64,000 nt of DNA from Candidatus Omnitrophota bacterium (GTDB lineage Bacteria; Omnitrophota; Gorgyraeia; Zapsychrales; Fredricksoniimonadaceae), in the NCBI GenBank assembly GCA_028870995.1, contig JAGWOI010000002.1, positions 110,463 to 174,462 of the forward strand, read 5' to 3'. Positions 57,930-62,304 of the stretch are shown here, one piece after another (position 1 is the stretch's first letter; each line of letters begins with the position of its first letter). The translations under genes were made by a program, and so were the position numbers. Under the pieces are notes generated by a model. It saw nothing but the letters and a program-made list of their open reading frames with translations. It made no database searches and was not told the origin of the DNA.

Positions 57930-58421
57930 TCAATAACTGCACAAGACTGAGGAGTAAACGTTGGTGGTGGCCGAAGATTGGAAGGAGTCCACAAGGTCAG
58001 AGTTGCTTACGCTGCTGCTGGTGCCGCCGCCGGTTGTTAAATATGCATACCCGGTCGGGAGAGTGGTGGGCAGGCAGCTAAGGTTGCCTGGGGTGGGGGT
58101 ACAATCGGAAGAACACGAAAACGGGGAGATGTTCCCTGTGCAGAAATAGTTATAACATTGCTGGGGATAAATGCTGGGCGTGCCGCCTTTACAGACATAG
58201 ATCGTTCCCGACGTGTCCGCGAAAAGCATGCCGTCGGGATTGCCGGTACAGGCATTGGAAACATTGGGAGCCGGAAAGGTATGGGATAATTTGATCATTT
58301 GATAATTCGATGAGGGCGCGGGATAGTAGGTGGTCAATTGGGTGGATCCTGTGCCGGCAAACGCAAAACCGGCAGGTGTAATGCCTAAACCGAGAATAAC
58401 AACCAGGGCGTATTTTTTCAT
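57930..58421 (-). CDS. Secreted Cys-rich protein, paralog family member P1 (163 aa)
   Basis: Signal peptide 'MKKYALVVILGLGITPAGFAFA'. Conserved motif 'TYYPAPSSNYQMIKLS' shared with the ORFs at 58418..58882 and 60094..62304. Ten Cys residues. Confidence 0.65.
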   Translation of the reverse strand: MKKYALVVILGLGITPAGFAFAGTGSTQLTTYYPAPSSNYQMIKLSHTFPAPNVSNACTGNPDGMLFADTSGTIYVCKGGTPSIYPQQCYNYFCTGNISPFSCSSDCTPTPGNLSCLPTTLPTGYAYLTTGGGTSSSVSNSDLVDSFQSSATTNVYSSVLCSY

Positions 58422-58882
58422 GGTTTCACCGTTGAGCCGGAAGTGCAGCAGACGATGGAATAAATATTGGTGCCATTCGATGTGAAGGTGTCGTAGTTAT
58501 TTGATGCTCCATTGATGCTTGCCAGGGCAAATCCTGTGGGGCACGGATTAGGAGAACCGGTGGTAAATTTACTGTTGCAGCTGGCATCAGTACTGGAGCA
58601 ATACCGGTTAAAACAAGTTTCATTGTAAGGAACAGACACATGGCTTGCCCCGTTGGAGGCGCATAAAATCAAGTCGGATCCATTTTGGTAAACAACGCCT
58701 TTATTGGTAGCTGACGTGCAGTCTGGTGCCGATGGGGGAGCAGACAGGGTGAGCTTGTTGTAGCTGCCCACTGGAGCAGGGTAATTGGTATTATAGATCA
58801 AATTGCCGGCAAGGGCATCGGCCGCAGCTGTGCAAAGGCACAGGATCAAGGCAAGCGAGAAGTTTTTTATAGTCCAAAACAT
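58418..58882 (-). CDS. Secreted Cys-rich protein, paralog family member P2 (154 aa)
   Basis: Signal peptide 'MFWTIKNFSLALILCLCTAAADALA'. Motif 'TNYPAPVGSYNKLTLS'. Its stop overlaps the P1 start (ATGA), implying a co-operon. Confidence 0.65.
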   Translation of the reverse strand: MFWTIKNFSLALILCLCTAAADALAGNLIYNTNYPAPVGSYNKLTLSAPPSAPDCTSATNKGVVYQNGSDLILCASNGASHVSVPYNETCFNRYCSSTDASCNSKFTTGSPNPCPTGFALASINGASNNYDTFTSNGTNIYSIVCCTSGSTVKP

Positions 58883-58979
58883 GCCAATTTAAATATATAT
58901 CATCCTATCACCCCGCGCAACCCAAATTCCGGGTATTAGGTTTATTTTTAATAAAAATTAAATATAATAAGAAGCGTTG

Positions 58980-59690
58980 ATGGACAACCCCAAAGATAAT
59001 GAGCTAAGCATCGTCCTGCCGGTCTTCAATGAGGAGGATGTCATTGAAAGAACCATCCGGGAGATAGAAGCCTACACCCTTCGTTTTATAGGTAAGGCGG
59101 AAATTATTGCTGTCAATGACGGCAGCACCGACGGCACCGCGAAGGTTCTGGATAGGTTAAGCCGCACGCTGCCTAATTTGAAAGTAGTCACGCACGAGCA
59201 GAATAGAGGATATGGGGGCGCTCTTTATTCCGGCATTAAAGCGGTGAGCAGTCACTGGATGCTGCTGATGGACCCGGATGGACAATTCCATATTGATTCA
59301 TTAAATGAGATATGGCCGCATAGACATGATCACGAAGTGCTGTTAGGGTACCGGCAAAAAAGAGGGGACAACCTGTACCGGGTTGCCCTGGGCAGGTTGT
59401 CCAACACCATTTTAAATTCATTTTTGAGCCGCCATATAAACGATCTCGATTGCGGTTTTAAAATTTTTAAGAGCGACCTTATCCGGGAAGTGCCTTTATC
59501 GTCAAGAGGCGGAGCAATCAACTTTGAAATAATCCACTATCTCCTAAGAAAATTTCCATCCATTAAGATTTATCAATATCCGGTAAGGCATTATCCTCGC
59601 GAAACGGGCAAGGCCAAAGGAGGTACGCCTAAAAAAATATTGAGGATGGCTTTCGAGGGTTTAAGGATCGTTTTTAGAACAAGAGGCTAG
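58980..59690 (+). CDS. GT2 polyprenyl-phosphate glycosyltransferase (GtrB/DPM1-like), stand-alone
   Basis: 'LSIVLPVFNEEDVIERTI', 'IIAVNDGSTDGTAKVL', 'HEQNRGYGGALYSGIKAV', 'LLMDPDGQF' and 'DCGFKIFKSDL'. Paralog of the N-terminal domain of 52701..55043. The track starts at a TTG (58977); the ATG at 58980 is preferred. Confidence 0.85.
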   Translation: MDNPKDNELSIVLPVFNEEDVIERTIREIEAYTLRFIGKAEIIAVNDGSTDGTAKVLDRLSRTLPNLKVVTHEQNRGYGGALYSGIKAVSSHWMLLMDPDGQFHIDSLNEIWPHRHDHEVLLGYRQKRGDNLYRVALGRLSNTILNSFLSRHINDLDCGFKIFKSDLIREVPLSSRGGAINFEIIHYLLRKFPSIKIYQYPVRHYPRETGKAKGGTPKKILRMAFEGLRIVFRTRG

Positions 59691-59697
59691 GGGGCTC

Positions 59698-59970
59698 ATG
59701 TATTTCTACAATTTTCATATTGATGCTTGGACAATCATAGGCCTGGCCGGCCAATTTTTGTTTTTCCTGAGTTTTGCGGTTCAATGGTACCGCTCCGAAC
59801 AGGCCAAGCGCAGCATCCTGCCCCAAGAATTTTGGCTGTTGCGATTGATTGCGTCATTGCTTTTGATCGCATATGTCCTGCATCGACGGGATATTGTCTT
59901 TTTAATAGCCGCCATTCTTCAAATTATTTTTTATTTGAGGAATATTATTTTGATAAAAGGGCAGGAGTAA
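59698..59970 (+). CDS. Small membrane protein with lipid-A-biosynthesis N-terminal (LAB_N)-like domain, GT2-associated
   Basis: RBS gggggctc. 'WTIIGLAGQFLFFLSFAVQWYRSEQAKRSILPQEFWLLRLIASLLLIAYVLHRRDIVFLIAAI' matches the W..IG..GQ..F..RF..QW..SE..K.S..P..FW..SL.G..LL..Y...R.D.V consensus. This family is typically encoded next to GT2 polyprenyl-P glycosyltransferases. Confidence 0.6.
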   Translation: MYFYNFHIDAWTIIGLAGQFLFFLSFAVQWYRSEQAKRSILPQEFWLLRLIASLLLIAYVLHRRDIVFLIAAILQIIFYLRNIILIKGQE

Positions 59971-60093
59971 CGCCTCATTATTTCCCCGCAAGGCCCGCAA
60001 TGCAATAATACCCGCCTTTTAGAAGTTAATTCAGCTGTATTTTTCTTGAAATTTAAGAACAACAGAGGAAGGTTTTAAGAAAATTTTGGATTG

Positions 60094-62304
60094 TTAGGTG
60101 CCTCCACCGGATCCTCCCGATCCTCCAGATCCTCCCGATCCTCCAGTGGCCCCGGTGTTGCCAGTAGCGCCAGAAGCACCAGTGGCACCGGTATTGCCAG
60201 TAGCGCCAGAAGCGCCAGTGGCTCCGGTATTACCAGTAGCGCCAGAAGCGCCAGTGGCACCAGTGTTACCGGTGTTGCCAGAAGCGCCAGAAGCACCAGT
60301 GTTGCCAGTGGCACCGGTGTTGCCAGTGGCCCCGGTATTGCCAGTAGCGCCAGTGGCTCCGGTATTACCAGTAGCGCCAGAAGCGCCAGTGGCACCAGTG
60401 TTACCGGTGTTGCCAGAAGCGCCAGAAGCACCAGTGTTGCCAGTGGCACCGGTGTTGCCAGTGGCACCGGTGTTGCCAGTGGCACCGGTGTTGCCAGTGG
60501 CACCGGTGTTGCCAGTGGCTCCGGTATTACCAGTAGCGCCAGAAGCACCAGTGGCCCCGGTGTTGCCAGAAGCGCCATATGCACCGGTGTTACCAGAAGC
60601 GCCATATGCACCGGTGTTGCCAGAAGCGCCATATGCACCGGTGTTACCAGAAGCGCCATATGCACCGGTGTTACCAGAAGCGCCATATGCACCGGTGTTA
60701 CCAGAAGCGCCATATGCACCGGTGTTGCCAGAAGCGCCATATGCACCGGTGTTGCCAGTAGCGCCAGAAGCACCAGTGGCACCGGTGTTGCCAGCAGCGC
60801 CATATGCACCGGTGTTACCAGAAGCGCCATATGCACCAGTGGCACCGGTGTTGCCAGCAGCGCCATATGCACCGGTGTTGCCGGAGTTACCAGTGTTACC
60901 GGTATTACCAGCGTTGCCGGTGTTACCAGTGTTACCGGTGTTACCGGTGTTACCGGTGTTACCCGTGTTACCAGTGTTACCGGTATTACCAGTGTTACCG
61001 GTATTACCAGTGTTACCGGTATTACCAGTGTTACCGGTATTACCAGTGTTACCAGTGTTACCGGTATTACCGGTATTACCAGTGTTACCGGTGTTACCGG
61101 TGTTACCAGTGTTACCGGTATTACCAGTGTTACCGGTATTACCAGTGTTACCGGTATTACCAGTGTTACCAGTGTTACCAGTGTTACCAGTGTTACCAGT
61201 GTTACCAGTGTTACCAGTGTTACCAGTGTTACCAGTGTTACCGGTGTTGCCGGTGTTGCCGGTGTTGCCGGTGTTGCCGGTGTTGCCGGTGTTGCCGGTG
61301 TTGCCGGTGTTGCCGGTGTTGCCGGTGTTGCCGGTGTTGCCCGTATTACCCATGTTACCTGTAGCGCCGGAACCTCCTGTTCCGCCAGGAACGCAATTAT
61401 TGACGATAAGATTATCAGTGCCGCTATTACATTGAATAGTAAGGTTGCCGGTGCATGAACCTGGACAAGCAAGGGAGCTGTCCGTTGCTCCGTTGGTCAG
61501 TGAAGAATTCTCCGTTACCGTGCCGCAAGACCCAACAAGAACTGGTTGTGGGGCGGTGCAGGCGCCGCAGCTTAGTAGTAGGCCACTACAGCTGTCGTTA
61601 CCAAGATTTCCATGGCCGCTGTAGTTGTAGCAGCAATCCCTTTTAAGGACGCTGTTTCCGCCTATACTGACGCATTCACAGCTTACGTCGTAGGCATTGG
61701 GATCAACACTGTTGCAAAGCGTCGGTTCCGTGGGAGAGGTATTGTAAGTCGAAAAACAGCCGGCTTTGGTCGTTGCCTTCGTAGCAGAAGCAGCTCCTTG
61801 TCCTGTAAAACTGCATGACCAGGTAATCTGATTGCCGGGCAGGACAGAACAACTGGTGACTTGGTAATTGCTGGGACAGGGCTCAGACGATGGTGTCAGA
61901 GGCGAAGGACAAGCTGCTCCAGACCCGAACCGGGTGAAAGATGTGCCTGGATAAGAGGCCACTGTCCCGTCGCTTTTGCACGCTTCCAGATAACCGGTGG
62001 TCGGATCTGTAAAGACAGCGCCGACATTATAATAAGTTGCGCCGGACCTCCCGGTATCGCAGTTATTAGCGCTATGATTTATACCATCGGTGTTCACGTT
62101 GTTTTTAGCGCAAAAGCAGGCGGAGCCGCTTGAAGCATAATTTTCGTTCGCGGTGGATGTAGCTGATAATTGTACCTTGGAATAATTTCCGCTGGGTGAG
62201 GGATAAGAAGTATAGGTGGCTGTTTGCCTGGCGAATGAAATAACGGCAATCGACCAGAGGCAAAGAGTTAACGGAAGTATGAAGAGAATAAGGAATTTTT
62301 TCAT
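60094..62304 (-). CDS. Secreted Cys-rich protein, paralog P3 (736 aa). N-terminal ~310-aa Cys-rich domain plus a ~420-aa C-terminal collagen-like Gly-X-Y region.
   Basis: Signal peptide '[25 protein letters not shown]'. Family motif '[18 protein letters not shown]'. More than 30 Cys residues. Then uninterrupted G-X-Y triplets (GNT x about 60, [21 protein letters not shown]), ending [13 protein letters not shown]. Confidence 0.8.
60098..61370 (-). repeat. Tandem DNA repeat (9-, 18- and 27-bp periodicities) encoding the collagen-like region
   Basis: Visible runs of (ggtgttacc/ggtattacc)n, (agaagcgccatatgcaccggtgttacc)n and (agtagcgccagaagcaccagtggcaccggtgttgcc)n. All three frames on both strands are open here; ORF track entries 60075..61472, 60091..61458, 60098..61435 and others are artefacts of this. 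Confidence 0.9.

Follow-up and report, generated by a model that had tools for sequence, protein, structure and literature searches.

The window analyzed here is a 64,000-nucleotide (nt) stretch of contig JAGWOI010000002.1 (forward-strand positions 110,463 to 174,462) in the Candidatus Omnitrophota bacterium assembly GCA_028870995.1. Its minus strand carries three open reading frames (ORFs), P1, P2, and P3, for predicted secreted, cysteine-rich proteins (Table 1). Our profile and database searches place them in a family that is new and specific to Omnitrophota, and in which both the N-terminal module and the cassette of three paralogs are new. An original prediction, made from the letters of the sequence, had described them as three tandem paralogs with a common N-terminal motif, one of them fused to a long collagen-like repeat. 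The ORF sizes of 163, 154, and 736 amino acids (aa) are as it claimed, and so is the translational coupling of P2 and P1, where the stop codon of P2 and the start codon of P1 overlap in ATGA. The word "tandem" applies to these two genes but not to P3, which is parted from P2 by two plus-strand genes encoding a glycosyltransferase family 2 protein (GT2) and a small LAB_N membrane protein. In related genomes, the P3-type gene lies immediately upstream of the P2-type gene.

All three proteins begin with a Sec-type signal that has n-, h-, and c-regions and ends in A-x-A. The segment that begins at the predicted cleavage site, called the arm below, has the consensus G-x-x-x-L-x-T-x-Y-P-x-P-x-G-x-Y-x-K-V-x-L in P1, P2, and P3; an example of the predicted mature N-terminal peptide is GNLIYNTNYPAPVGSYNK. 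In a six-frame translation of the whole window, the pattern Y[PS][APS]P.{2,3}Y has only three matches, each at residue ∼32 of one of the three proteins. Mature P1 and mature P2 contain eight cysteines each, and 22 are found in the N-terminal ∼280 residues of P3. The sequence, the pattern scan, and the hidden Markov models (HMMs) thus agree that signal, motif, and Cys-rich domain are common to all three, as had been proposed. The homology of P1 and P2 extends from end to end (30% identity, E-value 1e-10), while BLASTP joins P3 to P1 and P2 through the signal peptide and motif only. An HMM built from 66 small family members, P3 excluded, aligns P3 residues 1-156 (50 bits, E-value 1.6e-17), and this match spans the arm, a hairpin behind it, a 'Y-P-G-x-x-F-x-R-F' segment, and a 'C-P-x-N-Y' segment. 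The full-length homology of P1 and P2 and the HMM match on P3 mean that the kinship goes beyond motif sharing: by these alignments the three are true paralogs that have a domain in common, and they represent three orthologous subunit types, here numbered 1, 2, and 3. At residues 121-126 (window 61927-61944), P3 reads 'T-S-F-T-R-F', in contrast to '[SA]-C-F-N-R-F' in the small proteins and in almost every type-3 ortholog; hence a core-domain cysteine that is otherwise near-invariant has been lost in P3.

As a working definition, a family member has a Sec signal, an arm of the form x3-[LIM]-x-T-x-Y-P-x-P-x-[GA]-x-Y-x-x-[VIL]-x-L eight residues after A-x-A, a hairpin of the form C...G-x-[LIVF]-[FY]-x-D...L-x-x-C, and an adjacent paralog. 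All these features are present in P1, P2, and P3. A profile search of 1.84 billion representatives yielded 185 clusters at an E-value of at most 1e-3, 68 at 1e-10, and 22 at 1e-30, showing that the family is real and lineage-specific. A word-index homolog search found eight relatives; the same search found 17, mostly marginal, with the arm profile, and none with a 69-residue fiber-type arm. Most members have 140-200 aa, like P1 and P2, and about 20 resemble P3, with 300-1100 aa and often an extremely high cysteine content (up to 146 Cys). Wherever the source gives an organism, it belongs to Omnitrophota. Two loci, L007 and L008 (CAZFON010000106.1 and CAZASA010000007.1), are titled 'uncultured Planctomycetales bacterium', yet they are syntenic with the window and their RsmI is 82% identical to that of the window, so that this label is probably wrong.

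In the arm logo of 175 members, position -9 is Ala in 86% (the end of the A-x-A site), followed by Gly at -8 and then [TQN][TNS][TS][LIM][TS]T[YN]. From position 0 on, the logo reads Tyr (96%), Pro (100%), [ASP], Pro (85%), any residue, [GA], any residue, Tyr at 7 (96%), [NT], [KQ], [VIL], any residue, and Leu at 12 (85%). The fixed spacing from the A-x-A site suggests that the arm is the mature N-terminus. Behind it stands a Cys-closed hairpin, C...G-x-[LIV]-[FY]-x-D...L-x-x-C-x-x-G, and the small proteins continue with 'Y-P-E-x-C-F-N-R-F-C' and 'C-P-x-G-Y' and have 'V-C-C' at the C-terminus. The C-termini differ somewhat between types. Type-2 proteins (window 58418-58440; L006 4665-5168; L008 7935-8471) keep a tail '...C-C-x2-4-S-T-V-[LK]-P(-x1-2)' after Cys-Cys, while type-1 proteins stop right at Cys-Cys, and P1 has a single Cys there ('V-L-C-S-Y'). 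One type-3 protein, P0011 (728 aa), carries a Hint (intein / Hom_end-associated) domain at residues ∼500-640, inside its Cys-rich C-terminal part.

The claim that the family is undescribed held up in every collection searched. At an E-value of up to 1, Pfam-A, NCBIfam, and PHROGs gave no match for P1, P2, or the N-terminal domain of P3 save one sub-threshold signal-peptide match, and a sequence search of the PDB with two family profiles gave nothing meaningful. One profile matched designed beta-propellers (Cake, Bagel) via a blade-like 'G-x-L-Y-V-D' hairpin; no single stretch was significant, and we regard this match as spurious. We thus found no family or fold match in the PDB for P1, P2, or the P3 N-domain, and the fold is apparently new. 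In the papers on Omnitrophota that were consulted, we found no description of such proteins. The proteins are not pilins or pseudopilins, as they have no class III signal (G|FTLxE) and no N_methyl or pilin match in Pfam or NCBIfam at an E-value of up to 1.

The AlphaFold2 model of P2, based on an alignment of 66 sequences, has a predicted local distance difference test (pLDDT) score of 78.7 and predicts a small beta domain at residues 60-147. For P3 residues 1-306, the score is 64.8, with ∼70-86 in the core. In both monomer models the arm is the unpacked part with the lowest confidence (pLDDT ∼60 in P2 and ∼40 in P3), and it stands beside a confident core. This is the behavior expected of an inter-subunit element.

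We then compared three genome and 30 metagenome loci, scoring their ORFs with the family HMMs and with the proteins neighboring the family genes in the window. The three orthologous types can be told apart by their arms. Type-1 proteins have the arm 'A-G-T-T-S-L-T-T-Y-Y-P-P-P-T-A-A-Y-N-K-V-K-L-S-T-N' and 155-240 aa, occasionally 800-960 aa with 98 Cys. The type-2 arm is 'A-G-N-N-T-x-x-x-N-Y-P-A-P-S-G-S-Y-N-K-V-V-L-Q-N', in proteins of about 155-185 aa, and type-3 proteins are large with a variable C-terminus. The cassette or pairs of paralogs are seen in more than 20 loci. The full one-strand order type-3, type-2, type-1 occurs in L006, L016, L018, L019, L033/L032, L035, L014, L027, and L034, frequently in the pyrR|rsmI-glmS-DsbA slot that the window cassette also occupies. 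Type-2 is followed by type-1 in 15 loci or more, and several of these pairs overlap by 4 nt as in the window. P1 orthologs with the 'AGTTSLTTYYPPPTAAYNKVKL' arm are the last gene of the cassette in other loci. Locus L006 is collinear with the window: a type-3 gene (802 aa, with a GTT/GGS tail), type-2, and type-1 with the 4-nt overlap are followed by rsmI, glmS, DsbA, S11, and trmB. Genomes whose RsmI and GlmS are 82-84% identical have type-1, type-2, and type-3 orthologs that are only 34-50% identical and DsbA that is 43-68% identical; this indicates fast divergence, typical of exposed proteins.

The weakest profile matches are proteins of 300-750 aa with few cysteines that have only the arm and the hairpin in common with the family. 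The parts behind these two elements differ: 3 of 32 long members carry repeats resembling the YadA head, P0148 has an endosialidase-chaperone (Peptidase_S74) C-terminus with matches to tail-fiber PHROGs, and other distant members have beta-helix-like Gly-rich repeats. Judging by these domain and repeat matches, the distal modules are typical of trimeric extracellular fibers. P0144, from an Omnitrophota metagenome-assembled genome (MAG; locus L041), overlaps by 4 nt with a gene for a 451-aa paralog that has the arm and ends in '...V-W-C-C-D'. This pair occupies the slot of the window cassette, between pyrC-pyrB-pyrR on one side and rsmI-glmS-L27-DsbA-S11-trmB on the other. The interval between pyrR and rsmI is therefore a conserved site for cassettes or pairs of the family. 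In L043 and L044, further distant members likewise form tandem paralog pairs in other contexts. As distant members are paired too, adjacency of arm-sharing paralogs appears to be a property of the whole family. For members outside the slot (P0007, P0006, P0145, and P0151), we found no shared machinery in their contexts. Near the C-terminus of fiber-type members, a disulfide hairpin 'C-x4-6-G-x-[LI]-[YF]-x-[DN]...L-x-x-C-x-x-G-x-W' is repeated (P0145 residues 316-355; residues ∼378-408 of the protein at L041 7283-8638; the C-termini of P0142 and P0147), and the 'V-W-C-C-D' end of the 451-aa protein resembles the 'V-C-C' end of the small subunits. The second hairpin and the Cys-Cys end suggest that the small proteins correspond to the two ends of a fiber protein without its shaft.

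The C-terminal part of P3 is a collagen-like repeat. The original prediction of about 140 uninterrupted Gly-X-Y triplets with Thr, Tyr, or Ser in the Y position proved accurate: we counted 143 triplets without a single break in the Gly phase, a copy number that comes from one short-read assembly. The triplets are mostly GNT (79), GAT (24), GAS (18), GAY (10), and GGS (5); the X position is occupied by N (82), A (54), or G (7), and the Y position by T (104), S (24), or Y (10). Not one of the 429 residues is proline or charged. The protein ends in ...GGSGGGT, and no C-terminal domain and no LPXTG or other sorting motif was found there. Codons in the GN(T) block differ synonymously in 73 cases and nonsynonymously in three, which indicates selection on exactly the GXY frame. 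Given a triple-helix rise of 0.286 nm per residue, the rod would be about 123 nm long if triple-helical. This greatly exceeds the width of the periplasm, so that an extended rod would have to lie outside the cell. Triplets rich in Thr are a typical feature of collagens from bacteria and viruses, and the bacterial collagens characterized so far depend on proline and charged residues (PMC11923368). Neither proline nor a high share of charged residues, the compositions known to stabilize a triple helix without hydroxyproline, is present in the P3 rod. (Gly-Pro-Thr)10 stays a random coil unless its threonines carry sugars, and glycosylated threonine is the only route to helix stability that would be left for this rod (PMC11923368).

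The repeat region has no stop codon in any of the six frames, and further ORFs of 445-465 aa are open in it (60075-61472 on the minus strand, 60091-61458 and 60098-61435 on the plus strand). Given the six open frames, we consider these ORFs spurious, and a gene caller could choose them over P3; the full-length 736-aa product is absent from the records as a called gene. A second MAG (GCA_028865175.1) breaks inside the P3 gene. One of its contigs reproduces the first 148 residues, and on another, a called gene contains the last 108 residues of P3, identical and in the same frame, followed by LAB_N, GT2, P2, P1, and rsmI. Moreover, the GXY frame runs on from an N-terminal domain that has 22 strong homologs.

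Table 1. Features of the P1-P3 locus and its surroundings, in window positions.
Feature	Position	Strand	Evidence and parts
P1, type-1 small subunit, 163 aa	57930..58421	-	ORF; family HMM E 3e-33; NCBI hypothetical protein KGK03_01495; signal peptide, residues 1-22; arm GTGSTQLTTYYPAPSSNYQMIKLS, residues 23-46 (nt 58284-58355); disulfide hairpin; Cys-rich beta domain
P2, type-2 small subunit, 154 aa	58418..58882	-	ORF; NCBI hypothetical protein KGK03_01500; signal peptide, residues 1-25; arm GNLIYNTNYPAPVGSYNKLTLS, residues 26-47 (nt 58742-58807)
P3, type-3 large subunit, 736 aa	60094..62304	-	ORF; signal peptide, residues 1-25; arm, residues 26-47 (nt 62164-62229); Cys-rich N-terminal region, residues 26-306 (nt 61387-62229)
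P3 collagen-like rod	60100..61386	-	Residues 307-735, 143 G-X-Y triplets; Pfam Collagen PF01391 E 3e-58
GT2, polyprenyl-phosphate-sugar synthase type (ArnC/Dpm1/AglJ/PpgS-like)	58977..59690	+	Pfam Glycos_transf_2 E 6e-27; divergent from P2
LAB_N small membrane protein, 90 aa	59698..59970	+	Pfam PF07578 E 1e-21
GT2 + GT-C (PMT_2) fusion, 780 aa	52701..55043	+	Glycos_transf_2 E 1e-24; PMT_2 E 7e-8, 33.2 bits (cut-off 26.1)
DsbA-like periplasmic thiol-disulfide oxidoreductase	51751..52620	+	Thioredoxin_4 E 3e-28; DSBA E 4e-19
rsmI	57257..57916	+	Pfam TP_methylase E 1e-37; slot border, convergent with P1
pyrR-like phosphoribosyltransferase	63041..63607	+	Pfam Pribosyltran E 3e-24; other slot border; same position in L039 and L041/L042
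145-aa ORF	62381..62818	-	Directly upstream of P3; signal-peptide-like start; acidic Ala/Asp/Thr/Asn-rich low-complexity body

The two genes between P2 and P3, together with the GT2-PMT_2 fusion, resemble the genes of polyprenyl-phosphate-sugar pathways. The best NCBIfam matches of the GT2 at 58977-59690 are ArnC, AglJ, and PpgS, all far below the equivalog cut-offs. LAB_N, a member of the SWEET/MtN3-like clan (PMC4499210), could act as a flippase together with this GT2. The fusion protein is a candidate periplasmic transferase, going by its domain composition, and would use a polyprenyl-phosphate sugar. Thus, both a GT2 synthase domain and a GT-C transferase domain are present, as in glycosylation of the Gtr, Arn, and protein mannosyltransferase (PMT) types; PMT_2 is found in L008 as well. 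The fusion gene lies between DsbA and glmS, 3 kb from the cassette, and is absent from the syntenic L006 and L041, which makes it a lineage-specific insertion. In L007/L012 and L008/L023, genes for LAB_N, GT2, an ICMT-like membrane protein, a PMT_2-type GT-C, and PA14-domain proteins lie divergently upstream of the type-2 gene. In L038, L037, L036, and L011, the genes flanking type-2 include fragments of the GT2, ICMT-like, or PA14 kind. The GT2 proteins of the window and of L008 are 27% identical and the order of LAB_N and GT2 is reversed, suggesting that the association of these genes with the family arose more than once. A DsbA-like gene is found near family genes in L006, L009, L019, L037, and L041 as well, and rsmI borders the cassette also in L006, L008, L013, L016, and L041.

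The kinship of the three proteins, their motif, the order of the cassette, its synteny and gene neighborhood, and the absence of matches to known families are direct observations. The interpretation we favor, and to which we give a little less than an even chance, is that P1-P3 are subunits of a surface fiber or coat, docked by the arm, stabilized by disulfides, and glycosylated, and encoded by a cassette found only in Omnitrophota. In the following scheme, we infer the export route, docking by the arm, glycosylation, the triple helix, and the surface location. P1, P2, and P3 would be exported by Sec, cut by signal peptidase I after A-x-A, and oxidized in the periplasm, where the product of the conserved DsbA-like neighbor gene could act. 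The new N-terminus would be an arm of ∼22 residues consisting of two short strand-like stretches and a Y-P-x-P-x-G-x-Y turn. Unpacked on its own domain, it would serve as a shared docking or assembly element, letting neighboring paralogs co-assemble or dock on a common base whatever stands behind it. This role is suggested by the lack of packing in the models, the fixed spacing, the strand-like alternation, and the presence of the arm in otherwise different proteins. P1 and P2 would represent the minimal form (arm, disulfide hairpin, and small Cys-rich head), and P3 would add to this module a second Cys-rich region and the rod of 143 Gly-X-Thr/Ser triplets, ∼120 nm if triple-helical. The rod would receive O-linked sugars in the periplasm, as would probably the Ser/Thr-rich small subunits, the candidate polyprenyl-phosphate-sugar pathway being the GT2 and LAB_N between P3 and P2 plus the fusion protein encoded 3 kb away. 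Glycosylation of threonines would permit a stable triple helix of the proline-free GXT repeat. The structure may serve in attachment or surface protection of an ultra-small, probably host-associated bacterium.

The surface fibril or adhesin of the original prediction is plausible and consistent with the Sec signals, the length of the rod, the fiber modules of distant members, the fast divergence, and the glycosylation neighbors. Several observations weigh against it. The AlphaFold2 models are of moderate quality, with predicted template modeling scores of 0.49 (P2) and 0.38 (P3). Genes for outer-membrane export or for anchoring are missing from the neighborhood, and no C-terminal anchor or trimerization domain was found on P3. 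The long perfect GXY rod is peculiar to the window lineage, and type-3 orthologs share no conserved C-terminal extension: at this end they have Cys-rich repeats, GS-rich tails, or GTT/GGS tails that are partly out of phase. Without proline or charge, the rod may not form a triple helix and could instead act as a flexible mucin-like spacer. The recurrent adjacency of the glycosyltransferase genes makes P1-P3 candidate glycosylation acceptors. Yet L006 has a full cassette and no glycosyltransferase genes nearby, which means that GT2 plus LAB_N and the GT2-PMT_2 fusion are insertions in the window lineage. Furthermore, GT2, LAB_N, and GT-C are as similar to enzymes of the ArnC/ArnT type as to protein mannosyltransferases, and their acceptor may be lipid A or another envelope glycan.

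By analogy, and without homology, the closest functional counterpart would be the nap of the Bacillus exosporium. In the Bacillus cereus group, the exosporium base layer contains small self-assembling Cys-rich proteins (ExsY/CotY). Similar to P3, BclA has long Gly-X-Thr repeats; its threonines are O-glycosylated and its rod forms the surface 'nap'. It is joined to the base protein BxpB through a short N-terminal domain and not by a membrane or wall anchor (PMC10470788). On the other hand, BclA and P3 have no similarity in sequence or fold. BclA is synthesized in the cytoplasm of the mother cell, lacks a Sec signal, has Pro-rich GPT triplets, and ends in a C1q-like trimerization domain, whereas P3 has a Sec signal, no proline, a 280-residue Cys-rich N-domain, and a free Gly-rich C-terminus. 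Neither the C1q-like C-terminal domain nor the exosporium-targeting N-domain of BclA was found in P3. Unlike in the BclA system, the candidates for the base, P1 and P2, are paralogs of the N-domain of P3 itself. Scl1/Scl2 and Lcl share with P3 the order of signal peptide, N-terminal globular domain, and collagen-like region, the N-domain being the presumed nucleator of trimerization. Among the NCBIfam models for these proteins (NF038329, NF038330, and NF046116), the best matches of P3 were to SclB (232 bits, cut-off 325), SclA (180, cut-off 400), and Lcl (142, cut-off 500), all in the repeat only. Scl helices owe their stability to proline and about 30% charged residues (PMC11923368), while P3 has neither. 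Also, P3 lacks LPXTG or another C-terminal anchor, and its host is a diderm Omnitrophota bacterium. The likeness to BclA and Scl fibers noted in the original prediction therefore survives as an analogy and goes no further: P3 has no LPXTG, C1q-like domain, proline, or charge, and the NCBIfam scores stay below the cut-offs.

In chaperone-usher pilins, Ena, TasA, and archaeal threads, subunits are joined by a donor strand or an N-terminal connector, and in the Ena spore appendages the links are disulfide-locked. The adenovirus fiber tail FNPVYPY is a Tyr/Pro-rich peptide that docks on the penton base. Like such fibers, the P1-P3 family has a conserved short arm, variable parts behind it, and paralogous subunits side by side. 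Unlike them, it has no chaperone, usher, or sortase genes nearby and no fold support, and docking by the arm would here be an analogy. Neither a family HMM or fold match nor assembly genes of the chaperone-usher, Ena (DUF3992), or TasA types were found. With GtrA/B/C, ArnC/E/F/T, and actinobacterial Ppm1 plus PMT, the locus shares a GT2 synthase, an adjacent small membrane protein, and a GT-C (PMT_2). It differs from the Gtr and Arn systems in that the small membrane protein is LAB_N and not GtrA or ArnE/F, and in that the GT-C of the window is fused to a second GT2.

Four other explanations may be set against a surface fiber or coat. P1-P3 could be soluble secreted or periplasmic Cys-rich glycoproteins (lectins, effectors, or toxins acting on a host) rather than parts of a polymer, with the arm as a signal for recognition, modification, or sorting: it could be the acceptor for a PMT-like GT-C on the unfolded chain leaving Sec, or a signal for onward export. 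The motif is indeed rich in Thr, Pro, and Tyr, unstructured in the models, and placed at the mature N-terminus; genes for PMT_2-type GT-C, GT2, and LAB_N recur beside the type-2 gene; the proteins are small, Cys-rich, and fast-evolving, like secreted effectors; and no assembly machinery is encoded nearby. Still, at least eight motif positions are nearly invariant (including G5, Y7, V10, and L12), which is far stricter than in known O-glycosylation acceptor regions. The obligate tandem paralogs of fixed order suggest co-assembly, the arm also heads long proteins of the trimeric-fiber type, and the cassette occupies a housekeeping slot conserved across lineages, unlike typical effector islands. 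We therefore consider soluble glycoproteins unlikely. A pilus-like filament, in which P1 and P2 would polymerize head-to-tail by donor-strand exchange of the arm and be locked by disulfides, with P3 as a tip or decorating subunit, is less probable still. Its appeal lies in the alternation of the arm (L-x-T-x-Y ... Y-x-K-V-x-L), which is unpacked in the monomer models, in several paralogous subunit genes in an operon-like cassette, one with an extra distal domain, and in conserved Cys pairs that include the C-terminal CC. However, there is no Pfam pilin, fimbrial, or DUF3992 match and no chaperone, usher, sortase, or secretin gene in any locus examined, and the even number of cysteines (eight) in mature P1 and P2 fits purely intramolecular disulfides.

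The repeat of P3 might alternatively be a disordered, heavily O-glycosylated, mucin-like brush of Gly, Thr, Ser, and Asn whose period stems from expansion of a 9-nt DNA unit. This is compatible with a surface fiber or coat, and we regard it as possible, if doubtful. It would explain a composition without the proline and charged residues on which characterized bacterial collagens rely (PMC11923368), the orthologs in which this place is taken by GS-rich tails with no period or by GTT/GGS tails partly out of phase, the lack of a flanking C-terminal nucleation domain, and the compositional nature of the Pfam, NCBIfam, and PHROG matches. Yet an unbroken Gly phase over 143 triplets is much stricter than a low-complexity tail needs, and the excess of synonymous codon differences in the GN(T) block (73 against three) also speaks for the frame; Thr in the Y position with glycosylation is a documented route to helix stability, and distant family members resemble trimeric fibers. 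Finally, the repeat matches many PHROG tail-fiber families, it is open in six frames, P3 is not recorded whole as a called gene, and the second assembly breaks in this gene. Any of this could point to a prophage remnant or a phage tail-fiber module, or to an artefact of assembly or gene calling. We consider either very improbable and have largely rejected them. The locus has no phage genes and its neighbors are housekeeping genes; no family member occurs in 2.9 million viral contigs (IMG/VR) or in GenBank phages; P1 and P2 have no PHROG match, and the PHROG matches of P3 cover GXY repeats only. In view of the missing phage context and the absence of members from viral contigs, a phage origin in particular is rejected. 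As to an artefact, the P3 frame is continuous with a homolog-rich N-domain, and both of its ends are found in the same frame in the second MAG.

Omnitrophota are widespread, uncultured, and ultra-small, and are thought to live attached to other cells or to prey on them. To our knowledge, attention has so far gone almost entirely to their giant proteins and pili. The cassette offers a compact and testable candidate for surface architecture in this phylum, and it is plausible that P1-P3 belong among the bacterial collagen-like or fiber surface proteins with a surface-fiber role. If the arm is an assembly or anchoring signal, it would represent a new principle of surface display in diderm bacteria and provide a handle for finding surface proteins of Omnitrophota. 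The proline-free rod of 143 triplets near glycosylation genes would be a natural test of whether glycosylation of threonine alone can stabilize a long triple helix, a question that matters to collagen biophysics and to work on biomaterials. If the proteins are instead ordinary secreted glycoproteins, they still form a well-delimited new family. A bolder version, which we consider distinctly unlikely, would have the arm as a previously unknown, Omnitrophota-specific way of building or anchoring surface fibers without known machinery. In it, the arm and disulfides would lock neighboring paralogs of a new fold into one another, and the resulting base would display interchangeable distal parts (a glycosylated collagen-like rod, beta-helical shafts, or Cys-rich repeats). 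The pyrR/rsmI cassette would then be the main host-attachment organelle of ultra-small episymbionts, and the proline-free GNT rod a triple helix stabilized purely by threonine glycosylation.

The surroundings of the cassette in the window are of a housekeeping nature, with rsmI, glmS, an S11 D,D-carboxypeptidase gene, trmB, mutS, and mutL on one side, together with the GT2-PMT_2 and DsbA-like genes, and pyrR on the other. The 145-aa ORF directly upstream of P3 is an uncertain member of the same system. It has no Pfam or NCBIfam match and no homolog in 38 related loci; its counterpart in the second MAG is a called gene of 138 aa. At its position, L006 carries a gene for a different small secreted coiled-coil protein (1800-2186). 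A scan for promoters and terminators gave counts no higher than in shuffled sequence. In eight loci, family genes have a gene for a DUF2079 membrane protein as a neighbor, mostly convergent and downstream.

Two thirds of the window are taken up by a single plus-strand ORF of 14,397 aa (39-43232). In a Pfam search, its first 5,000 residues gave no match, and its last 5,000 matched only two domains, VTC and adenylate kinase. A link between this giant gene and the family, raised in the original prediction, finds no support: the two are 15 kb apart, separated by mutL, mutS, and other housekeeping genes, and the flanks examined in syntenic loci contain no giant gene. Among the flanks of related loci, the sole exception is found near P0007, where an unrelated gene encodes 3,029 aa or more. 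In L008, an IS200-like (Y1_Tnp) transposase gene (9174-9803, minus strand) adjoins the type-1 gene, which is inverted relative to type-2; this suggests a local rearrangement.

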